Of a stretch of DNA of 64,000 nt, positions 5,897 through 57,276 are shown piece after piece; the first letter of the stretch is position 1, and each line of letters begins with the position of its first letter. The notes below the pieces were generated by a model. That model did no database searches. It was not told where the DNA came from and saw nothing but the letters and a program-made list of their open reading frames with translations. Source of the stretch: Alphaproteobacteria bacterium (GTDB lineage Bacteria > Pseudomonadota > Alphaproteobacteria > RF32 > CAG-239); assembly GCA_900767645.1 (NCBI GenBank), contig CAAFZY010000005.1:28986-92985 (forward strand), given 5' to 3'. The translations under genes and the position numbers were made by a program.

Positions 5897-7214
5897 TTTT
5901 AATATCCTTCTTTTGTTTTTGTTGTTTTTCACGGCGCAGATTATCAAAATAATCAATCCGTTTTTTAATTTCGCGCTCAAAGCCGCGTTCAACCGGATAA
6001 TATAACTTCACCCGATTAATACCGTCCGGAAAATAATTTTGACCCGAAAATCCGTCTTCCAGATCTTGGTCATAAACATAACCGTCGTGGTATCCGAGTT
6101 GTTTCATTAATTTGGTCGGAGCATTTAAAATGTGCTTAGGCGGCATTAAAGAGCCGGTTTGTTTGGCCAGCTCAAACGCTTTGTGCATAGCCTTGTAAAC
6201 GCCGGCCGATTTAGGCGCGGTTGCCAAATAGGCAACAAGCTGCATAATGGCAAGCTCGCCTTCCGGTGAGCCCAAGCGTTCATAAACTTCAGCGCAAGAT
6301 AAAGCTTGAGTAACGGCGTTAGGATCGGCAAGCGAAACATCTTCAACCGAAAACCTGATTAAACGTCGCAAAATATAACGCGGGTCTTCGCCCGATGAAA
6401 GCATGCGCGCAACCCAGTATAAAGCGGCGTCAACATCGGAGCCGCGCAACGATTTATGTACCGCGGAAATAAGATTGTAGTGTCCGTCGCGCCCTTTATC
6501 ATATACCGGCGCGCGGGAACGAATAATATTTACAATGTTATCTTTGTTAAAAATTTCGCCTTCTTTGGCATAGGACCAAACGCTTTCCGCCAAATTAAGA
6601 ATATATCGGCCGTCACCGTCGGCAGTTTCTTTCATTAATTGACGAGCCTCATCATCAACCGGTAACTTGCGTCCGATTTCTTTTTCGGCGCGCTGTAATA
6701 AAATTTCAAAATCATCAGAAGTCAGGCGGTTCAAAACAAATACCTGACAGCGTGAAAGCAAAGCGGCATTAAGTTCAAATGACGGGTTTTCAGTGGTGGC
6801 TCCGACCAAAATTACCGTGCCGTCTTCAACGTAAGGCAAAAAGCCGTCTTGTTGTGATTTGTTGAAGCGATGAATTTCATCAACAAACAGCAAAGTGCCT
6901 TTACCTTGAGTGGCGCGACGTTCTTGAGCATATTGAAAGACGCGTTTTAAATCAGCCACACCGGAAAATACGGCGGAAATTTGCTCAAAATATAAATTGG
7001 TATGCTCAGCAATTAAGCGGGCGATGGTGGTTTTGCCGCACCCCGGAGGTCCCCACAAAATAAAAGAAGAAATTTTGCCGGAGGCAAGCATGCGGCCGAG
7101 CGGGGCATTGGCTCCGACAATATGATTCTGTCCCACAACTTCGGCTAAAGTTTGCGGACGGAGCCTGTCGGCTAAAGGCCTTTTGACCTGATTTGAAAAA
7201 AGCGTTTCTTCCAT
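5889..7214 (-). CDS. rarA: replication-associated recombination protein A (AAA+ ATPase)
   Basis: GPPGCGKTT Walker A and length and layout typical of RarA/MgsA. Confidence 0.85.
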   Translation of the reverse strand: MEETLFSNQVKRPLADRLRPQTLAEVVGQNHIVGANAPLGRMLASGKISSFILWGPPGCGKTTIARLIAEHTNLYFEQISAVFSGVADLKRVFQYAQERRATQGKGTLLFVDEIHRFNKSQQDGFLPYVEDGTVILVGATTENPSFELNAALLSRCQVFVLNRLTSDDFEILLQRAEKEIGRKLPVDDEARQLMKETADGDGRYILNLAESVWSYAKEGEIFNKDNIVNIIRSRAPVYDKGRDGHYNLISAVHKSLRGSDVDAALYWVARMLSSGEDPRYILRRLIRFSVEDVSLADPNAVTQALSCAEVYERLGSPEGELAIMQLVAYLATAPKSAGVYKAMHKAFELAKQTGSLMPPKHILNAPTKLMKQLGYHDGYVYDQDLEDGFSGQNYFPDGINRVKLYYPVERGFEREIKKRIDYFDNLRREKQQKQKKDIKND

Positions 7215-28752: not shown

Positions 28753-28918
28753 GGTTCTTTGCAGAGGTATTATAAAAGGCACAAGTTTTATAAAAGGTGC
28801 CTGTTTACAAAATTACAAAAGGTGGCGGATTTTCCCCACCTTTTGGTGTTTTAAAAAACTTAAGGGAATTTTTATAAATACACAGTATCGTTATAATTGT
28901 TTAACGAAAGGAACAACT

Positions 28919-29830
28919 ATGGATAGGCAAGTAATTGAAATTATGAATGATGGCTTTATGCTGTCATTGCACCGAGGTTTTATTGTAGTTGAAAATAAAG
29001 AGCAGCAAATTAAACATGAAGTTCCGCTTGATAATGTGCTTGCGTTGGTGCTATCGGCCAACAATGTGGTGGTTTCAAAAAATATTATAAATGCAATTTG
29101 CGAGCAGGGCAGAAATGTTATTTTTTGTGATAAGACTTACCTGCCTTCCGCAATTACTATGCCATATACCGGACATTGGCTGATTGCTCCGCGAGTTAGG
29201 CAGCAGGTTGAATGCTCAAAACCATTACAAAAAAACTTATGGAAAAGTATTGTTCAGCATAAAATTTTGAATCAAGCTTTGGTGTTGGAATATTTTTTTC
29301 CGCAGCATGCCAATATTGAACGATTAAAACAATTATCAAAAGCAACGCTAAGTGATGATGCCAGAAATAATGAGGGAATCGCAGCGTCTATTTATTTTAA
29401 ATCATTATTCGGAAAACATTTTGTGCGCGACCGTCTTAATAATGATGTCAATATTTTGCTTAACTATACATACACGGTATTGCGCGCCGTTGTGGCCAGA
29501 GCAATTGCCGGAAGCGGATTATTGCCATATTTAGGGCTTAAGCATTGCACAAAGTCTAATCCGTTGCCGTTGGTTGATGATTTAATTGAACCGTTCAGAG
29601 CAGTGGCAGATAAAATTGTGTTTGAAGAGTTAAATAAGTTGGTGGATATAAGCAATATTGAATTAACTCCTGAAATTAAGCGCAATTTGGCAAAAGTTAT
29701 TACATATTCGGTGCAAACGGCTAAAGGCTGTATGTCATTAAATGATGCGCTTTGTGATTTTGCCGGTACTTTAGTTGCCAGTTTTGAGCAAAAGAAAGTA
29801 GCGTTAAAATATCCCGATATTTTGTTTTAA
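28919..29830 (+). CDS. cas1: CRISPR-associated endonuclease Cas1 (type II)
   Basis: FCDKTYLPS..., EGIAASIYFKSLFGKHFVR and LPYLGLKH motifs. The start was chosen at ATG 28919 (RBS AAAGGAAC) rather than at the ORF-track start 28739. Confidence 0.85.
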   Translation: MDRQVIEIMNDGFMLSLHRGFIVVENKEQQIKHEVPLDNVLALVLSANNVVVSKNIINAICEQGRNVIFCDKTYLPSAITMPYTGHWLIAPRVRQQVECSKPLQKNLWKSIVQHKILNQALVLEYFFPQHANIERLKQLSKATLSDDARNNEGIAASIYFKSLFGKHFVRDRLNNDVNILLNYTYTVLRAVVARAIAGSGLLPYLGLKHCTKSNPLPLVDDLIEPFRAVADKIVFEELNKLVDISNIELTPEIKRNLAKVITYSVQTAKGCMSLNDALCDFAGTLVASFEQKKVALKYPDILF

Positions 29831-29945
29831 ATAAAATAATGGGGGTAACTAAAGTCGCCCCCTCATCTTACGGCATTTTCAGCCTTATTATATATGTGTT
29901 GACCGTCTAATTAATCTCTGAAAAATAAGCCAACTTATATAACAA
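29831..29945 (-). ncRNA. predicted tracrRNA
   Basis: On the minus strand there is a TTGACA-16-TATATA promoter (29979-29952). It is followed by a 24-nt anti-repeat (UCAGAGAUUAAUUAGACGGUCAAC) perfectly complementary to repeat nt 7-30. A nexus-like AAGGCUGAAAAUGCCGU and a GGGGG...CCCCC hairpin plus U-run terminator follow, ending next to the cas1 stop. Confidence 0.6.
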
Positions 29946-30031
29946 TATTAGTATATAAAAAATTTAATTGAATTGTCAATTAAAATATTGTACCGTTGCT
30001 TATATTTCTATTAAAATTATAGGAGCTTGCT

Positions 30032-33000
30032 ATGAAATATTGTTTAGGACTTGATTTAGGCGTTGGCTCAATCGGTAGCGTGGTTGTGGAATTAGATAAA
30101 AATAATAATCCTGAAAATATTGCAGATGCCGGAGTGCGGATTTTTGAGGTATCGGAGGGCGCAGAAGAAAGGCGAACAAAACGCACGGCGCGTAAAAATT
30201 TAATCAGAACAAGAAAACGTTTAGAACTTTTAGCACAAAAATTGTATGAAAATAATTTATGGGTTAGTGCGAATCCTGAAGGCACAAATAATTTAAAATC
30301 AAAATCTCCTTATAAAATTCGTTATGATGCTTTAAATGGTAAGTTGGAAAATCAAAATTATATCGGGCGAGCAATTTTGCATTTGGCGAAACATCGTGGT
30401 GCCGGTTTTGTTTCAGCCGCTGAAGAAATGGAAGAAGAAGTTTTAGAAGAAGGCGAAAAATCTAAAGCTAAAAAATCTTCTTATGACATGATGCTTTATC
30501 ATTTAAAAGAAACAAATTCCAGAACTGTCGGTGAGTTTTTTTACAATAAAATAATCTCCGGTAAAGGAAATGATAAAACGGTTCGTCAGAAAAAATATGC
30601 CATTGAAAAGAATATTATAGATTACGCAATTCCGCGCTATTTGGTAAAAGATGAGTTCAATCAAATTTGGAATAAACAAGCCGAATTTTATCCACAGATG
30701 AAAAAAGAAAATTTAAAGAAAGAAATTTACGATATTTTGTTTTATGAACGTCCGGCAGCACCATACGCAACCGGTAAATGCATTTATTTCAGGGATGAAG
30801 ACCGCCTGCTAAAAGCGCACCCTCTTTCAGAGATGCGCCGTATTTATGAGGAAGTCAACAACATTCGTATTTTAAATGATATGAGTAAAAGAAAATTAAC
30901 CTTGGAAGAAAGAGATTCTATTATTAATGAGCTTTTGCTAAAAGGCCAAAATGCAGGTAAACAGGCAATCAAAAAATTGCTTAATTTGTCTGCGCAACAC
31001 AAAATTTCTTTGGTTGATGACAGAGTAATTAAAGCCTATTTATATTCTCGTCCTGAATTTGCAAATAACGAATATTTACAAAAGATGAATGAAGACGAGC
31101 TTTCATCTTTTATTGAGTTTTTGTCAGAACCAAAAATATCACAGGATAAAAATGGCCGTTTATACAATGAAGATTCGTTAATTGAGTATCTTAAGCCAAT
31201 TCTGAAAATTGATGACGAAAAAGAAATCGGCAACCTTTTAACCAAACTGCCCAAAGGGAGAGGAATGTTAGGTATAAGCGCCACAAAAATTATTCTGGAA
31301 AAATTAAAAGAAGATGTATTAACACATCGTGAAATTACCGATAAATTAGCCGAAACAGATAAACGATTTATGGCAGAGGAAGAAATAGCCCGCCAAAATC
31401 AGGGAAAATGTTTTCAACTTCCGTATTACGGGGAGATCTTGCAAACAGATACGGCTCCGCTTCCGCCTTTAATGATAAATAACAACAAGAGCCTTAACCA
31501 TGACGAGATAAAATGGGGTAAAATAGCCAATCCTGCCGTGCATATGATTCTCAATCAAATTCGCTTAGTTGTTAATGAAATTATCAAAATTTACGGCAAG
31601 CCTTACAATATCAATATTGAACTTGGTCGTGATGTCGGTATGTCAACAAAGAAGAAAAAAGAATTTGAAAACAGACAAAAACAAAATGAAAAACTTAATG
31701 AAGAGGCTAAAAAATATTTAAAAGAGCATAAAATTGTCATAAACAGTAAAAACATTTTAAAATACAAATTGGCCAAAGAGCAAGGCTGGAAAGATGCCTA
31801 TAATCCGACACAAAATATTTCTTCCGTATTTACGGGTATGGAAGTTGAGCATATTATTCCCCAAGCCAAAGGCGGAACAGATACATATAACAATCTCTGT
31901 TTAGTTAATAGCAATGACAACTTAAATAAAGGCGACCGATATGCCTATGAATATTTTGCAGAAACAAAAACACCGGAAGAAATCAGAGAAATTCTAAAAA
32001 ATGCCCGTTCCCGTACCCCTGACAAGTCTTGGCGTTTTGAAGCTGATGCGCGAGAAAAATATGAAGAAAGCGGCGATAAAGAAGAAAGTACCCGTTATTT
32101 GACGGATACCCGCTATGTTGCAAAAATGGCGGCACGTTATTTGCGAGCTATTGTTGATTGCCCTGATTGTGATGAAGTTATGGACAATCGTATTTTGGCA
32201 GTCAAAGGCGGGCAGACTGCAGAGTTGCGTAAGCGTTGGGATTTGCAAGGCTTGGAATATGATTTAATGGGCTTAAATATCCCGAGATATATTGATTGCG
32301 CGCCATATTGGCGGGAGTTGGATACCGGCGAAATAATTGACGGAGAGCAAAAGCCGGATATTGATGGTAATTGGAAATTTTATAATTGTGTAAAGAATCC
32401 TGAATGGTCGCCAAAGCCACGTATTGACCACAGACATCATGCGATGGATGCTATAACAGTTGCTTGTGCAAACCGTGGATTAATTCAGAAAATGGCAGAA
32501 GAAAATGATATTAACAAAATTCATTATCCGTTGCCTTTAACTTCTGTTGAATCTGTAGCAGATTTTAGAAGAAAAGTTATTTCCTGTCTAAAAGATATCA
32601 AAATTTCGCACAAACCTGATCACAGTAAGGCTGGACAATTACATAAAGAAACAGGCAGAACTGTTTTGTGTCAAAACCCTGATGATCCAAATTGTTTAAT
32701 CACTGTTTATTCTCGCAAAATTTTACAGGTGGTAAAATCTGCTAAAGATTTAACTAAACTGCTCATTCCAGAAACAATCAAGAATGAATGGCATGAGGAT
32801 ATTGCAGAATATAAAGCCAAACAGGCTAAGCTAGTACAAGATTTTGAACTTTATATGAATACGGCGGAGCAAATTTTAATTGCCGAAAATGAACAGGGTG
32901 TGGCAGAAGGTAAAAAGGAAATTAAAATTACTGAAGGAAGAATTTTGTTAAAGGCGTTCCGTATTATTCAAGATAAAGGCCTATGGAAAGGTGATAAATT

Positions 33001-33499
33001 TAGATGCTATGAAAATAATTCTTCTTTGGTTTATATCAAAAAACATGGTGTGGCTTATGAAGGGCGAAATAACCATTGTGTAGATTTTTACGTTAAAGAT
33101 GGTAAAGTCGGTTGGGAGGTTATTAAACGATTTGATGCAAATCAGCCTGATTTTGTTCCGCAATGGAAAAAAGACGGAGGAAAACTTATTTGGTCAGTTC
33201 AACAACGCGATATGTTGGAATTAGATACTCCTGATGAGTGGAAATCATATACCGATAAAGAGCGCTGTTTAGCTAAAGTAAAAAAGTTCAGCGATGGAGA
33301 ATTTAATATTGATTATATGGCTGACGCTCGTATGACATCGCCAAAAGATAAAAACTTAAAATATATGTTTGTTAATACTTTAAGAAAGGGGCTGGCATTT
33401 TTACTTCAGCATAAAGCGCGGAAAATAGAACTTACACCGTTTGGCAAAGTAAAGAAAAAACATAAGGTGTTGTGGAATGGCACGAAGACAGCGGCTTGA
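30032..33499 (+). CDS. cas9: Cas9 (type II-C-like, 1155 aa)
   Basis: RuvC-I GLDLGVGSIGSVVV. Arg-rich bridge helix. RuvC-II NINIELGRD. HNH VEHIIPQAKGG...NLCLVNSNDNLNKGDRYAYEYF. RuvC-III HRHHAMDAITVA. An RBS AGGAG precedes the ATG. Confidence 0.95.
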   Translation: MKYCLGLDLGVGSIGSVVVELDKNNNPENIADAGVRIFEVSEGAEERRTKRTARKNLIRTRKRLELLAQKLYENNLWVSANPEGTNNLKSKSPYKIRYDALNGKLENQNYIGRAILHLAKHRGAGFVSAAEEMEEEVLEEGEKSKAKKSSYDMMLYHLKETNSRTVGEFFYNKIISGKGNDKTVRQKKYAIEKNIIDYAIPRYLVKDEFNQIWNKQAEFYPQMKKENLKKEIYDILFYERPAAPYATGKCIYFRDEDRLLKAHPLSEMRRIYEEVNNIRILNDMSKRKLTLEERDSIINELLLKGQNAGKQAIKKLLNLSAQHKISLVDDRVIKAYLYSRPEFANNEYLQKMNEDELSSFIEFLSEPKISQDKNGRLYNEDSLIEYLKPILKIDDEKEIGNLLTKLPKGRGMLGISATKIILEKLKEDVLTHREITDKLAETDKRFMAEEEIARQNQGKCFQLPYYGEILQTDTAPLPPLMINNNKSLNHDEIKWGKIANPAVHMILNQIRLVVNEIIKIYGKPYNINIELGRDVGMSTKKKKEFENRQKQNEKLNEEAKKYLKEHKIVINSKNILKYKLAKEQGWKDAYNPTQNISSVFTGMEVEHIIPQAKGGTDTYNNLCLVNSNDNLNKGDRYAYEYFAETKTPEEIREILKNARSRTPDKSWRFEADAREKYEESGDKEESTRYLTDTRYVAKMAARYLRAIVDCPDCDEVMDNRILAVKGGQTAELRKRWDLQGLEYDLMGLNIPRYIDCAPYWRELDTGEIIDGEQKPDIDGNWKFYNCVKNPEWSPKPRIDHRHHAMDAITVACANRGLIQKMAEENDINKIHYPLPLTSVESVADFRRKVISCLKDIKISHKPDHSKAGQLHKETGRTVLCQNPDDPNCLITVYSRKILQVVKSAKDLTKLLIPETIKNEWHEDIAEYKAKQAKLVQDFELYMNTAEQILIAENEQGVAEGKKEIKITEGRILLKAFRIIQDKGLWKGDKFRCYENNSSLVYIKKHGVAYEGRNNHCVDFYVKDGKVGWEVIKRFDANQPDFVPQWKKDGGKLIWSVQQRDMLELDTPDEWKSYTDKERCLAKVKKFSDGEFNIDYMADARMTSPKDKNLKYMFVNTLRKGLAFLLQHKARKIELTPFGKVKKKHKVLWNGTKTAA

Positions 33500-33518
33500 A
33501 ACTTTAACCGGATGGTCT

Positions 33519-33839
33519 ATGATGTGGATAATATGTATGTTTGATATTCCGGTCAGGACTAAAACCGAAATGCGTAAAGCGACTCGTTTTCGTAATTTGC
33601 TTTTGGATAATGGTTTTGTTATGAAGCAGTTTTCGGTTTATATAAAACCGGTAAAAAGCTTAAATGTTGGACAAACAGTCACGAAAAGCCTTGCAAAGTA
33701 TATTCCGGATAACTCTTCTGTCTCTTTTTTATATATTACCGATAAACAATATTTAATGACGGAAAATTATTTGGGAAAAAATTATGAAGAGAATGAAGAA
33801 GAGAATCGCGAAAAAAATGGGCAATTATTGCTTTTTTAA
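33519..33839 (+). CDS. cas2: Cas2
   Basis: MMWIICMFDIPVRTKTEMRKATRFRNLLLDNGFVMKQFSVYIK matches the Cas2 beta1-alpha1 pattern. The ORF-track start 33477 would overlap cas9 by 23 nt, so the ATG at 33519 is preferred. Confidence 0.8.
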   Translation: MMWIICMFDIPVRTKTEMRKATRFRNLLLDNGFVMKQFSVYIKPVKSLNVGQTVTKSLAKYIPDNSSVSFLYITDKQYLMTENYLGKNYEENEEENREKNGQLLLF

Positions 33840-33865
33840 GGGTGTCTTTTAGCGTTTTTATAATA

Positions 33866-33900
33866 AACAAAAGCCTTGAAATGTTGTCATTTCAAGGCTT
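33866..33900 (-). terminator. hairpin terminator in the CRISPR leader, oriented for minus-strand (pre-crRNA) transcripts
   Basis: gccttgaaat-gttgtc-atttcaaggc stem-loop. On the minus strand it is followed by UUUUGUUUAUUAU. Confidence 0.5.
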
Positions 33901-33913
33901 TGCGCTATTAGAT

Positions 33914-34740
33914 AGCATATCAGAGATTAATTAGACGGTCAACTATAACTATTTCGCCCTCAATGTATCGATATTTTGTAGCATATCAGAGATTAATTAG
34001 ACGGTCAACTATAACGCTTGGTTCTGCGACGTCTCAAGGACATTTAGCATATCAGAGATTAATTAGACGGTCAACTATAACACAGTACCGGCAATGTTGT
34101 ATAGTCGTCACAGCATATCAGAGATTAATTAGACGGTCAACTATAACTGCCACCCATGAGCCCGCTTGCTATTTCTAGCATATCAGAGATTAATTAGACG
34201 GTCAACTATAACTAGCTGTCAATAGCTTTTTTATTATTTTCCAGCATATCAGAGATTAATTAGACGGTCAACTATAACTAATTTACTGTGCTCTTTTTGC
34301 TGAATAAAAGCATATCAGAGATTAATTAGACGGTCAACTATAACAGAAGTATGACGAGTACTCAGAATATTATAAGCATATCAGAGATTAATTAGACGGT
34401 CAACTATAACACAAGCTGCAGGATAGGCTTATTCAGCAAAGCATATCAGAGATTAATTAGACGGTCAACTATAACATGTTTTGCTCAATAACAGTTTTGT
34501 TAACTAGCATATCAGAGATTAATTAGACGGTCAACTATAACGCTAAAATGTTAGCGTTGGTCTTTATTGACAGCATATCAGAGATTAATTAGACGGTCAA
34601 CTATAACTATCCGGACATATTATACATCATGTCACCAAGCATATCAGAGATTAATTAGACGGTCAACTATAACAATTTTCGGACGGTGTCGGCGCATAAG
34701 TGAAGCATATCAGAGATTAATTAGACGGTCAACTTATAAC
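33914..34740 (-). CRISPR. CRISPR array of 13 copies of a 36-bp repeat and 12 spacers (ten of 30 bp, two of 29 bp). The repeat on the crRNA strand is GTTATAGTTGACCGTCTAATTAATCTCTGATATGCT.
   Basis: Repeat copies start at 33914, 33980, 34046, 34112, 34177, 34243, 34309, 34375, 34440, 34506, 34572, 34638 and 34704. The cas-distal repeat (34704-34740) carries a 1-nt insertion. The repeat begins with GTT in minus orientation and is complementary to the tracrRNA anti-repeat. Confidence 0.95.
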
Positions 34741-34755
34741 CAAGTATTGTTATAG

Positions 34756-34866
34756 CCTTTCGCTTGTAGTCGGTCTGGCTTGTAAGCTCTGCCTAAAGGC
34801 AATCGCTAACTGCGCTGCGGTCACTTGTTTTGTAAGCTCGCTGCGGTTGCTGTCGCTTTCCTTGCT
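34756..34866. repeat. partial copy (3' half) of the ~185-bp repeat element whose full copy is at 56968-57150
   Basis: cctttcgcttgtagtcggtctggct...gctgcggttgctgtcgctttcc is about 90% identical to 57031-57141. Confidence 0.7.
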
Positions 34867-35005
34867 CGCGAACAAAACTACGCTTTCGGCGATAAAAAAG
34901 CAGATAACAGCTTTTTTATCTTGAAACTCACTCCGTGAGTTCGAACCTCTACTTTCACTCATTATTTACAACAAAACCCGCCACAAGGGCGGGTGTTGTT
35001 GTAAA

Positions 35006-35026
35006 TGGCGGATAGAGTGAGATTAT
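35006..35026. repeat. duplicated 3' end of tRNA-Ser (aatggcggatagagtgagatt), att-like direct repeat
   Basis: A 21-nt exact copy of 35172-35192 lies about 150 bp from the tRNA. It is preceded by a GC hairpin. Confidence 0.65.
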
Positions 35027-35105
35027 TCCGCTGCGCTTCATTCACTGTGCTCATCGGCTATCGCCGACCGGCGTACTCCCGTCCGCCTTTCGCTTGTAGT
35101 CGAAC
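35027..35105. repeat. partial copy (5' part) of the ~185-bp repeat element
   Basis: attccgctgcgcttcattcactgtgctcatcggctatcgccgaccggcg...cctttcgcttgtagtcg is about 90% identical to 56968-57047. Confidence 0.7.
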
Positions 35106-35174
35106 TCACTTCTCGTGAGTTCTTATCTTCTGAATATGCCATTACAAAAAGCCCCATAAAGGGGCTTTTTGTAA

Positions 35175-35265
35175 TGGCGGATAGAGTGAGATTCGAACTC
35201 ACGGTACCCTTTGGAGGTACACACGATTTCCAATCGTGCGCCTTAGACCGCTCGGCCATCTATCC
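35175..35265 (-). tRNA. tRNA-Ser (anticodon GGA)
   Basis: 91-nt cloverleaf GGATAGATGGCCGAGCGG...UUGGAAA anticodon loop...long variable arm...GTTCGAATC...GCCA, reconstructed from the reverse complement. Confidence 0.85.
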
Positions 35266-49679: not shown

Positions 49680-50348
49680 ATGATGATGAAATATAATGAA
49701 AACGGCCGTTCAATGGTTGAAATGCTTGGCGTATTGGCGATTATCGGCGTTTTGTCGGTTGGCGGTATCGCCGGCTATTCAAAGGCTATGAACAAATACA
49801 AAATTAACAAAACTACCGATCAGGTTTCAATGCTTGTTGCTAACATCCGTACTTTGTTCTCTTCACAGGGCAACTATAAAGGTTTGACTAATGCTCAGGC
49901 TATTAAATTCGGTGTTGTTCCGAATGATATGTATACTCCTAAATCAGGAAATGCAGAGATTACTGAAATTACAAACGCTTTTGGTGGCGCTGTTACTATT
50001 GCTGCTTCAGGAGGTCGTGCTAAAGATGATAATGAAGCTTTTACTATCGCTTACAGTGGGTTGACATCTGAGGCCTGCATTACCATTGCCACCGGTGACT
50101 GGGGTTCAGGTCAGGCTTCCGGTTTGATTGGTATTGCTGCGGTTGGTAAGGAAGCAGAAGACGCTACTGATAAGGGTGCTTTGGCCAAACTTGCAGAGAT
50201 CTATACCACAGCCACTGATGGAACTGCTAATGTAAGCATACCTGGTGCTACAGATACAGCCAATAGAACTCCGATGACTGTTTCTAAAGCTGTTGGAATA
50301 TGCAATGGATCTGGCAGCACTAACTCAGTTGCTTGGAAGTACTACTAA
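49680..50348 (+). CDS. type IV pilin-like protein, paralog 2
   Basis: N-terminal 60 aa near-identical to paralogs 1 and 3 (NENGRSMVEMLGVLAIIGVLSVGGIAGYSKAMNKYKINKTTDQVSMLVAN). An RBS GAAGGA is present. Confidence 0.65.
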   Translation: MMMKYNENGRSMVEMLGVLAIIGVLSVGGIAGYSKAMNKYKINKTTDQVSMLVANIRTLFSSQGNYKGLTNAQAIKFGVVPNDMYTPKSGNAEITEITNAFGGAVTIAASGGRAKDDNEAFTIAYSGLTSEACITIATGDWGSGQASGLIGIAAVGKEAEDATDKGALAKLAEIYTTATDGTANVSIPGATDTANRTPMTVSKAVGICNGSGSTNSVAWKYY

Positions 50349-56235: not shown

Positions 56236-56862
56236 TTATAAATCCCATTTAATTTTTAAATGAGGAGTTTTTTTGCCGATATGCATGGTGCAAATGTCAT
56301 AAATGTTATTAAGAGTTAAATCTTTTAAGCATTGTCCTCCTTTGGCGCATTTTTGGTCGCCATACATAACCGCAATATTGTAATCATCTGTGTTCCAACC
56401 GTTCAGGCTTTCAAGTTGGGTGATGTTACCGGAGTTTTCTTTGGCGGTTATCAGTATGTTGCGGCATATCTCTAAATTTTGGGTGCTTTTAGTTTCAAGT
56501 TGAGGCTCCATAAATAAAATGACACGCTTTGCACCATCTTCATATAGCTCATAAGCGATATAATAGGCATTTTTAAAAATGTCATAAATGAACCCGTCAT
56601 AACTGACAGCCATTTCTTTGGGAATTTCGCCCATTTTAATAAAGATGCCGGTTAAGTTTGCGCCCTGTTTTAAATTAGCAAAATTATGCGCGTTGCTTGC
56701 AACCGCATTAATTACAGTGTTTAATTGTTCCGCTTGTTTGTTAAGCTTGTATTTGAACATTGCCTTAGAGTATCCGGCAATCGCCCCGACGGATAAAACC
56801 CCGATAATCGCAAGAACGCCGAGCATCTCGACCATAGACCGCCCATTTTCTGATTTCATCAT
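56236..56862 (-). CDS. type IV pilin-like protein, paralog 3
   Basis: MMKSENG|RSMVEMLGVLAIIGVLSVGAIAGYSKAMFKYKLNK. An RBS GAGGAG lies 8 nt upstream of the ATG at 56862. The ORF track extends to 56877. Confidence 0.6.
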   Translation of the reverse strand: MMKSENGRSMVEMLGVLAIIGVLSVGAIAGYSKAMFKYKLNKQAEQLNTVINAVASNAHNFANLKQGANLTGIFIKMGEIPKEMAVSYDGFIYDIFKNAYYIAYELYEDGAKRVILFMEPQLETKSTQNLEICRNILITAKENSGNITQLESLNGWNTDDYNIAVMYGDQKCAKGGQCLKDLTLNNIYDICTMHIGKKTPHLKIKWDL

Positions 56863-56919
56863 TAAAAATCTCCTCAAAAAGTTACTTTTAAAATAATATT
56901 ATCTCGCGTTTTTTTTTTG

Positions 56920-56954
56920 CAATATTTACGAGTCCGTGCTGTGTATAAGTTGTA
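56920..56954. repeat. 35-bp conserved noncoding motif, copy 2 (copy 1 at 440-474)
   Basis: See copy 1. It lies just upstream of the putative pilin-3 promoter TTGCAA-N17-TAATAT (minus strand). Confidence 0.6.
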
Positions 56955-56967
56955 TGTTATCGGCGGG

Positions 56968-57150
56968 ATTATTCCGCTGCGCTCCATTCACTGCGCTCAT
57001 CGGCTATTGCCGACCGGCGTTCTTCCGCCCGCCTTTCGCTTGTAGTCGGTCTGGCTCATAAGCTCTGCCCTATGGGCAATCGCTAACTCGCTGCGGTCAC
57101 TTGTTTTGTAAGCTCGCTGCGGTTGCTGTCGCTTTCCTGGCTCACCGTAA
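56968..57150. repeat. ~185-bp repeat element, full copy (partial copies at 34756-34866 and 35027-35105), located 3' of tRNA-Arg
   Basis: Aligned by eye to the two partial copies. It contains internal direct repeats ctcgctgcggt x2 and is followed by the hairpin aaaaaaagcaccgtaatggtgcttttttt. Confidence 0.65.
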
Positions 57151-57199
57151 ATGTCTATCCGCACCATTAAAAAAAGCACCGTAATGGTGCTTTTTTTAA

Positions 57200-57276
57200 T
57201 GGCGCGCCCGGCGGGATTCGAACTCACAACCTTCTGATCCGTAGTCAGATGCTCTATCCAATTGAGCTACGGGCGC
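57200..57276 (-). tRNA. tRNA-Arg (anticodon ACG)
   Basis: GCGCCCGTAGCTCAATTGGATAGAGCA...anticodon loop CUACGGA...GGTTGTGAGTTCGAATC...GCCA, from the reverse complement. Confidence 0.85.

Follow-up and report, generated by a model that had tools for sequence, protein, structure and literature searches.

Gene-less, structured repeat units directly behind tRNA genes in uncultured Alphaproteobacteria of the gut and rumen

A stretch of 64,000 nucleotides from an alphaproteobacterium (assembly GCA_900767645.1, contig CAAFZY010000005.1, positions 28,986 to 92,985; called here the window) carries a repeat of about 185 bp behind a tRNA-Arg gene and pieces of the same repeat behind a tRNA-Ser gene. What kind of element is this, and why does it lie beside tRNAs? 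The original prediction held it to be probably one noncoding element, associated with attachment (att) sites or resembling a miniature inverted-repeat transposable element (MITE), or else a small RNA gene. We find that the copies belong to a gene-less, structured repeat family situated immediately downstream of tRNAs in a clade of uncultured gut and rumen Alphaproteobacteria, and that they are built from two separate modules, called here A and B. The repeats are indeed non-coding, tied to tRNA 3' ends, structured, present well beyond the window and att- or MITE-like in flavour, but they do not form a single element.

All three pieces that had been described are present in the window. BLASTN with the full tRNA-Arg copy (56968-57150) returned 34755-34867 (93.9% identity over 114 nt) and 35021-35102 (92.7% over 82 nt), and no further copy in the 64 kb beyond those two. 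The 17-mer CCTTTCGCTTGTAGTCG shared by the pieces is found at exactly three sites (34756, 35086 and 57032) and was absent from all 100 dinucleotide-preserving shuffles, and its recurrence is therefore not due to chance. As had been noticed, tRNA-Ser(GGA) and tRNA-Arg(ACG) are both encoded on the minus strand with all copies 3' of them, and the internal direct repeat CTCGCTGCGGT occurs twice. A covariance model of the B part (R1) recognised only 35041-35104 (87.5 bits) and 56987-57050 (85 bits), the sole extra match in the window being an isolated 18-mer at 34749-34774. The G+C content is 41% for the window and 59-61% for the B cores. Two features had been overlooked: pieces of the adjacent tRNA border each copy (a 19-nt tail, a 10-nt tail and T-stem hairpins), and a CRISPR array (33914-34739) abuts the piece formerly taken for the 3' part, which is an A piece. 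A protein-coding function was rejected, in line with the earlier dismissal of the open reading frames (ORFs), as the only one is a 76-aa GTG ORF overlapping the tRNA and the variation consists of hairpin-compensating changes and indels. Since these are not the only copies in their genomes and do not lie inside coding sequence, the noncoding, repeated part of the earlier reading stands.

Read on the tRNA-sense strand, every unit follows the same order: tRNA, terminator, HEAD, insert, TAIL, terminator, for a unit length of 170-330 bp. In the HEAD, the inverted tRNA 3' end is joined by a purine-rich loop to the 5' half of the T-stem, which is followed by TT. The insert is either B (about 70-110 nt, beginning with CGACTACAAGCGAAAGGC), A (170 nt including a terminal 18-mer) or A and B together. 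The TAIL copies tRNA positions 58-76; it never exceeds 19 nt and is exactly 19 nt long in more than 30 loci among the matches listed. Where the two terminators of a unit differ, the tRNA copy stops exactly at CCA. The T-stem 5' half of the local tRNA always precedes B and pairs with the inverted copy over the purine-rich loop, 341 of 392 positions in the HEAD hairpins being Watson-Crick paired. HEAD, T-stem copy and TAIL all track the sequence of the local tRNA across species.

The distribution of B was determined by scanning one genome per species (596 Gb) with the 18-mer pattern GCCTYTCGCTTGTAGTCG. At least 118 stretches matched in the species-representative genomes, and true B units were recognised at 95 or more loci in at least 67 assemblies; about two dozen of the matches listed are chance or coding occurrences in unrelated, mostly soil or environmental taxa, a number near the estimated expectation. 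The carriers come from human gut, rumen and other animal guts, and nearly all are labelled Alphaproteobacteria, Rhodospirillales, 'Azospirillum sp.' or Proteobacteria CAG:495, labels that we take to correspond to the GTDB order RF32. In most true loci with enough upstream sequence, the motif is preceded, at a distance of about 50-90 nt (nearly always 67-89 nt), by the end of a tRNA on the same strand, and the tRNAs concerned belong to at least 21 species. Assemblies carry 2-4 B loci each among the matches listed, and the 64-kb window has 2 B copies. Tandem arrays of two or three units are common, and many of the 120 copies found by R1 in 99 loci are second members of such arrays. It should be noted that contigs such as L031 (loci are designated here by L numbers) end inside units.

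Folding of the consensus, a check that had been proposed, was carried out with RNAalifold on 37 units and gave two internal B hairpins, P2 and P3. In a 40-sequence alignment, P2 and P3 together show 52 double-change cells, compared to 17.8 ± 3.6 in shuffled alignments, none of 500 shuffles reaching 52; 85% of the P2/P3 cells are paired, and 22-50% when the partners are slid. Copies with a variant 18-mer keep P2 through compensatory changes, for example GCGAGAC/GTATCGC. Identity between B cores averages 84% (maximum 96%) at different tRNAs of the same assembly; it drops to 76% where the tRNA is the same but the assemblies differ, and to 73% for all other pairs. In pairwise alignments, the similarity between B units starts at the T-loop TTCGA and stops at AATCC.

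The HEAD hairpin is part of a larger palindrome. Positions 49-76 of the tRNA, terminator 1 and the left arm, that is the inverted copy, fold together into one long hairpin. Averaged over 64 units, the left arm pairs with 21.4 of these 28 nucleotides, compared to 9.1 of 28 for 14 tRNAs without B, the control value being the best over a range of lengths. The DNA structure of the fold-back has z = -12, its axis lies on the terminator loop, and pairing is continuous through CCA/TGG. Four controls scored high: L023 carries a full unit of HEAD, different insert and 19-nt TAIL, and the others hold related inverted or partial copies of the tRNA end, namely inverted copies in L096 and L037 and, in L114 and L105, cargo that begins with a copy of the T-stem and loop of tRNA-Glu. 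As the fold-back inverted copy of positions 49-76 is followed by a direct copy of those positions, the layout of a unit is sense (the tRNA), antisense, then sense again (the interrupted copy). The direct copy carries the module at the T-loop, between T55/A58 and A58, and no uninterrupted partial (28-nt) tRNA copy devoid of an insert was found in the alphaproteobacterial loci. The tRNA is thus at no time lost, its intact gene and own terminator being retained upstream.

The unit of L023 lies behind tRNA-Gln(CTG) (6196-6269) and is composed of a head hairpin, an insert of about 100 nt that R1 misses, a 19-nt tail and a repeated terminator; this suggests, from its arrangement, that further insert families exist. 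L023, L105 and L114 all display unrelated inserts within the same grammar.

Does this grammar account for the two loci of the window? The intact tRNA-Ser(GGA) gene (35175-35265, minus strand, as are all features of this locus; ARAGORN and Rfam) is followed by terminator 1 (35142-35174), whose sequence is unlike the terminator type behind tRNA-Ser(GGA) in other species examined. HEAD 1 (35103-35141) is composed of a diverged inverted copy of the tRNA-Ser 3' end (35115-35141), the loop GAGAA and then GTGAGTT, which corresponds to the T-stem 5' half with T54 and T55, and it forms the hairpin GAACTCAC-GAGAA-GTGAGTTC at 35102-35122. The B core of this short-form unit (35025-35102, 78 nt) opens with the 18-mer (35085-35102) and is 92% identical to the B core at tRNA-Arg. 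Its TAIL AATCTCACTCTATCCGCCA (35006-35024) is an exact 19-nt copy of tRNA-Ser positions 58-76. Terminator 2 (34965-35005), for which bidirectional termination is predicted, is of the type found behind tRNA-Ser(GGA) in other species examined and resembles the proximal terminator of L026, L053 and L061. A second unit, which contains A only, starts with HEAD 2 (34925-34949), a hairpin specific to tRNA-Ser (GAGGTTCGAACTCAC-GGA-GTGAGTT), and continues with a full-length A module (34773-34924, 152 nt without the 18-mer) that opens with a terminator-like hairpin TCAAGATAAAAAAGCTGTTATCTGCTTTTTTAT (34892-34924) and is about 95% identical, as estimated by eye from the alignment, to the A modules of L058 and L144. 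The 18-mer CGACTACAAGCGAAAGGC (34755-34772) closes the A-only unit, the CRISPR array beginning 15 nt further on. Each of the two units thus has its own tRNA-Ser-specific HEAD, with a terminator between them, and the apparent splitting of one element near tRNA-Ser resolves into two complete tandem units, B then A, of separate modules.

At the tRNA-Arg locus, likewise on the minus strand throughout, the intact tRNA-Arg(ACG) gene (57200-57276; ARAGORN, and 65.1 bits with the Rfam tRNA model) precedes the unit, and the terminator palindrome TTAAAAAAAGCACC..GGTGCTTTTTTTAA (57167-57199) comes directly after CCA, runs on into CCA/TGG and has the same start in L067. Next is a degenerate HEAD (57139-57166), made of TGGTGCGGATAGACATTTAC, a decayed inverted tRNA-Arg 3' end, followed by GG and GTGAG, the T-stem 5' half; it was read from a three-genome alignment of the window, L087 and L067. 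Only the 3' 90 nt of A are present (57049-57138, ending ..GAGCTTATGAGCCAGAC), 93.9% identical to 34773-34866, and the first 75 nt or so, including the terminator-like hairpin, are missing compared to the full A of L144, L058 and the tRNA-Ser locus. The B core (56971-57048) comprises its first 18 nt CGACTACAAGCGAAAGGC (57031-57048), P2, P3 and a variable 3' part, and scores 85 bits with R1. The TAIL is reduced to a 10-nt remnant AATCCCGCCG (56961-56970) corresponding to tRNA-Arg positions 58-67; this truncation is common to the window, L087 and L067, the remainder of the tail having been lost in the lineage. The three related genomes differ at this tRNA: L087 carries B alone and its head is intact; in L067, an A' unit that ends in CGCCA has been added directly after CCA; and in the window A is joined to the 18-mer, with loss of the old terminator and head. 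Beside the B unit, the segment 56192-56956, which holds a pilin-like gene (56236-56877, with an N-terminal methylation motif), is inverted in the related metagenome-assembled contig L087 (57-819 and 1168-1273), where the 106 nt of 56851-56956 have two matches in opposing orientations, which suggests an invertible or duplicated 5' region of the pilin gene.

An intact counterpart of the combined form is provided by the metagenome contig L144, in which a tRNA-Lys is followed by terminator, head, full A, AGACTACAAGCGAAAGGC, B, a 19-nt tail and a terminator. The A+B arrangement is thus a genuine form, and the copy behind tRNA-Arg in the window is, judged by its sequence, a truncated version of this long form: A and B do stand together there, as the description of a full copy implied, but the copy is not an intact element. 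A long form analogous to it occurs in L027, its first module being a different one that is repeated twice. At the tRNA-Gly of L058, a B unit stands before an A-only unit, and the latter closes with a diverged 18-mer just where the A-only unit of the window closes too. L144, L058 and the three-genome comparison at tRNA-Arg together identify the 17/18-mer as a module junction, at once the 5' end of B and the 3' end of A. The 17-mer had been likened to a target-site duplication; it is instead the conserved 5' start of B (at about 100 loci) and the 3' end of A-only units. It had also been likened to a crossover site, and in this respect it is a genuine joining point of modules, although not a duplication arising from insertion. 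It is reasonable to suppose that the long forms arose by recombination at the 17/18-mer. In L012, the second B unit is followed by a head hairpin orthologous to that preceding A in L058 (5500-5545), then by unrelated sequence, and this site may possibly represent an empty or alternative state of the L058 A site. A scan of metagenomes with a 16-mer of A gave mostly chance matches, and five informative loci (seven matches), L144 among them.

A module with the same grammar was also encountered at a different tRNA loop. In another taxon, an A-like module of 153 nt lies at the anticodon loop of tRNA-Pro(TGG), where the loci have a perfect palindrome of the anticodon-stem 5' half and a 38-nt tail copying the 3' part of tRNA-Pro. 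One, two or three tandem copies of this module are found in different samples (L001, L123, L125, L128, L130, L194 and L199). Scanning IMG/VR with the A 16-mer detected only this tRNA-Pro family, beside a serine-recombinase region; two of the tRNA-Pro contigs are 'viral' contigs of IMG/VR with DUF2924 and a large serine recombinase downstream.

How, then, could such units have come to stand behind so many tRNAs? The anatomy of the units, their distribution and boundaries, the covariation, the within-genome similarity, the polymorphism between close relatives and the lack of a linked gene are matters of observation; mobility itself, a single-stranded intermediate and an enzyme are what we infer. 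The explanation that we favour, tentatively and with somewhat less than even confidence, is that A and B are non-autonomous, structure-dependent mobile modules that are copied between tRNA loci and land in a fold-back copy of the tRNA end. Copying between the tRNA loci of a genome would pass through an intermediate, single-stranded or folded back on itself, that is anchored on GGTTCGAATCC, the T-loop sequence common to most tRNAs examined; for the A-like relative at tRNA-Pro, the anticodon loop would serve as the anchor instead. The step itself might be a site-specific single-strand exchange or a template switch, performed by some trans-acting enzyme, and joining at the 17/18-mer would yield the A+B long form, as at tRNA-Arg. 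Either a folded mimic of the duplex at the tRNA gene's 3' end or fold-back priming from the terminator palindrome could account for the layout.

Several observations weigh against this explanation. The units of the loci examined have no linked gene for a transposase, integrase or reverse transcriptase, no excised or circular form was seen, and a clean pair of empty and filled sites for B was not found in near-identical genomes. Among the bystander tRNAs of the fetched loci, 14 have no B unit and only about 3 have one (R1 matches read by eye), which indicates that the process would be selective or rare. The invariance of the 18-mer is partly a matter of construction, as the sample was drawn with GCCTYTCGCTTGTAGTCG as seed. 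Wobble pairs in the HEAD hairpins (10 GU and 8 AC) show no strand bias and do not tell RNA from DNA. The within-genome similarity could also stem from microhomology-mediated conversion and not from true transposition. Lastly, we found no route to the inverted tRNA-end copy in known recombination chemistry: integrase products have a contiguous core, the terminal repeats of transposons are specific to the element and not to the target, and the axis of hairpin footprints lies at the break and not at position 48/49.

A related and unlikely proposal is that the units are the integrated form of a gene-less element whose single strand, DNA or RNA, folds as a rod resembling the 3' half of a tRNA gene and is copied at tRNA loops. 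The rod would consist of T-arm, acceptor strand, CCA and terminator, with B or A branching from the T-loop, and it would propagate by self-primed fold-back copying or by single-strand exchange at conserved tRNA loops. One variant supposes a reverse-transcribed origin from a pre-tRNA primed by its terminator hairpin; Neurospora retroplasmids, which capture tRNA, offer a parallel.

The main rival to mobile modules, rather unlikely in our estimation, is that the units are host small-RNA genes, transcribed by read-through from the strong promoter of the tRNA into a structured, tRNA-tailed RNA. Such an RNA would have a 5' hairpin, the three-hairpin core of B and a 3' tail of T-stem 3' half, acceptor and CCA ahead of its own terminator, and its role would lie in tRNA metabolism or regulation; it might, for instance, serve as a sponge or decoy that draws off toxins or enzymes recognising the 3' end of a tRNA. 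RNA function would keep B conserved, and its copies would evolve in concert. The compensatory changes in P2 and P3, the GNRA-like and purine-rich loops, the tandem G.A pairs and the invariant G.U pair found on the tRNA-sense strand only, and the terminator behind most full-length tails all fit this proposal, as does the way in which HEAD, T-stem copy and tail follow the local tRNA across species; the tRNA-Ser unit of the window also folds better than shuffled sequence (z = -3.5). Against it, no promoter is predicted for A or B while a terminator separates tRNA and unit, and in the long forms A places another terminator-like hairpin before B. The tRNA-Arg copy lacks most of its tail and the terminator and yet is as conserved as its flanks. 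Moreover, no Rfam family matches, the wobble pairs show no one-strand excess, and the clustering by genome, the tandem arrays and the differences in presence or absence are more typical of mobile DNA. By-products of replication or repair would explain other aspects: fold-back priming and template switching, provoked by the many hairpins of the tRNA-terminator region, would triplicate the tRNA 3' end as sense, antisense and sense, and A and B would be filler taken from other loci through T-loop microhomology, no dedicated machinery being required. The zig-zag layout, a palindrome axis on the terminator loop with pairing continuous through CCA/TGG, B boundaries that coincide with conserved T-loop flanks, the absence of a linked gene and the occurrence of several unrelated inserts in one grammar (L023, L105, L114) agree with this. 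It is nevertheless improbable, for the same precise architecture, fixed 19-nt tail included, recurs at 21 or more tRNA species in at least 67 assemblies, B has been preserved, with compensatory changes, across divergence at the species level, and the turn-around loop is always purine-rich, all of which indicates selection or a dedicated process.

It could also be argued that the units are inert attL/attR scars of integrase islands or prophages after internal deletion. An intact tRNA with a displaced 3' copy starting at the T-loop, the anticodon loop or the last 5-7 nt matches the classical sublocations. Partial tRNA genes left by integration events are common (PMC9897764). Classical islands use the same tRNAs, as in L060, and 1.3-1.9 kb of cargo lie between units in L105, L114 and L116. 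However, a true attR keeps stem, loop and stem contiguous, whereas the T-loop copy is here always interrupted by an insert, and with no integrase nearby, hairpins maintained by compensatory change and near-identical B cores at different tRNAs of one genome, we regard this origin as quite improbable. Least credible of all is the literal model of a 185-bp MITE split at tRNA-Ser with the 17-mer as its target-site duplication. Although the 17-mer does flank both tRNA-Ser pieces and is single in the tRNA-Arg copy, B precedes A at tRNA-Ser, so that the pieces are circularly permuted rather than split. Each of them also carries a HEAD specific to its tRNA, B mostly occurs on its own (about 100 copies), and an A-only unit ending in the 18-mer recurs at the tRNA-Gly of L058.

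The units may be compared with several known systems. Integration in tRNA genes reportedly uses anticodon-loop, T-loop and 3'-end sublocations, as described by Williams in 2002. Like elements that use tyrosine integrases to target tRNAs, the units keep the tRNA intact and displace a direct copy of its 3' part downstream, this copy starting at the T-loop (19 nt), at the anticodon stem (38 nt, in the tRNA-Pro family) or within the last 5-7 nt; again as in those integrative elements, the element side has its own terminator and serial or tandem arrays form at one tRNA. Unlike these, the units measure only 170-330 bp and have no integrase or any gene, their tRNA copy is interrupted by an insert and preceded by an inverted tRNA end, and one insert serves at least 21 tRNAs. 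With MITEs and cis-mobilizable elements bearing att sites they share being short, non-coding, apparently multi-copy, structured, polymorphic between relatives and presumably moved in trans; by contrast to MITEs, their inverted repeats copy the local tRNA and differ at every tRNA in place of having fixed ends, there is no ordinary target-site duplication, the 17-mer being an internal junction, and no autonomous partner was found.

Integron attC sites and the attP(+) site of CTX phage are folded single-strand recombination sites. The units resemble them in having an imperfect palindrome, a single strand of which can fold into a target-mimicking duplex that is bulged or branched where exchange would take place, and in that structure is conserved more than sequence; they differ in that no core motif of IntI or Xer type was recognised, no such gene is present in the loci, and the target would be the tRNA T-arm. 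IS200/IS605-type elements are associated with palindromes and IS91-like elements move by rolling circle. As with these, the insert stands, without a duplication, on the 3' side of a short sequence that is conserved (GGTT/GTTC of the T-loop in the units), and subterminal hairpins and tandem multimers are found, but the two end hairpins of a unit are unrelated to each other, tnpA, tnpB and rep genes were not seen, and the fold-back copy is left unexplained. In E. coli, 3'ETS-leuZ is a small RNA derived from a tRNA 3' trailer. The units, too, lie directly 3' of a tRNA on the same strand and could come from the tRNA transcript, whereas the terminator before the unit, the copy of the tRNA end and the presence of multiple copies across tRNA species set them apart. 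We found no description of such units in the literature, and likewise no match in Rfam; the unit type is apparently undescribed, partial tRNA copies left by integration being already known.

tRNA genes are classic landing sites for mobile DNA, and the gene-less units of this clade have a fixed grammar that falls outside integrase, transposase and RNA-family models; the carriers make up an entire clade of bacteria that abound in gut and rumen but are uncultured. Should the units prove mobile, they would represent an unrecognised way of copying DNA into conserved tRNA loops while leaving the tRNA unharmed; if they are RNAs, they would constitute a new tRNA-tailed family with more than 100 members for comparative analysis. 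Because they break assemblies, bound small islands of defence and restriction-modification cargo and adjoin a CRISPR array, they matter for reading genome plasticity in these metagenome-assembled genomes.

Islands and cargo were seen at some of these tRNAs. A classical 5.6-kb island (678-6700 of L060) has inserted at the anticodon loop of tRNA-Lys(CTT), where 45 nt of the tRNA are repeated. It encodes a tyrosine integrase of 446 aa together with a small resolvase, a HaeIII-type endonuclease and a C5 methylase, and the resident B unit lies downstream of it. Cargo of 1.3-1.9 kb extends from the tRNA or first unit to the second B unit in L105 (1960-3340), L116 (1608-3442), L114 (264-1768) and L054 (upstream of 2969); it encodes a DPPW-motif methyltransferase, a helix-turn-helix protein and proteins of unknown function. 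At its end the cargo of L105 and L054 repeats 7 nt of the tRNA-Glu end (AGCATCACCA), behind which comes a terminator of its own.

Other searches were negative. With Rfam, only tRNAs reached the gathering score, and nothing relevant appeared at E ≤ 10 over either locus of the window. No neighbouring protein recurs, at most 5 of 97 loci sharing one. No promoter was predicted for A or B, no CRISPR spacer matched A, B or any locus, and the plasmid collections gave no match. The IMG/VR scan with the 18-mer returned just two chance coding matches, and the phage collections held two unannotated faecal-virome scaffolds with the same kind of tRNA-linked units.

Several known identities were also considered and rejected. 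The motif order is similar to that of a hammerhead ribozyme (GAAA..GUC..NNGAUGAG), but the would-be core positions G5 and A6 covary as helix pairs; a G at the would-be cleavage position and the absence of an Rfam match also rule it out. ARAGORN detected no transfer-messenger RNA (tmRNA), in one or two pieces, and the units are multi-copy. As to a trans-activating CRISPR RNA (tracrRNA) or CRISPR leader, the anti-repeat lies elsewhere (29898-29921, between cas1 and cas9), and the other A and B copies examined are not beside CRISPR arrays. Secondary insertion of B into older attR relics was discarded, empty relics not having been found, and the TGG after the terminators, which might pass for a primer-binding site, is explained by the palindrome extending through CCA/TGG.

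The genes examined beside both loci of the window are chromosomal (GroEL, glycogen phosphorylase, a response regulator, RgpF and type II CRISPR-Cas), with no recombinase among them. The type II CRISPR-Cas system occupies 28739-34739 in an unusual gene order: cas1 (28739-29830), cas9 (30032-33499, 1155 aa) and cas2 (33477-33839), the anti-repeat for tracrRNA at 29898-29921 being a perfect match of 24 nt. Its array (33914-34739) has 13 repeats of 36 nt, of which the terminal one, beside the A-only unit, has a 1-nt insertion; each repeat contains a promoter-like site, TTGACC-17-TATGCT, on the minus strand, as in type II-C. Another pilin gene, PilS/bundlin-like (49680-50348), is located just upstream of tRNA-Glu(CTC), a tRNA that has no unit, and 21037-25242 encodes a 1401-aa autotransporter with a cEGF-like match.

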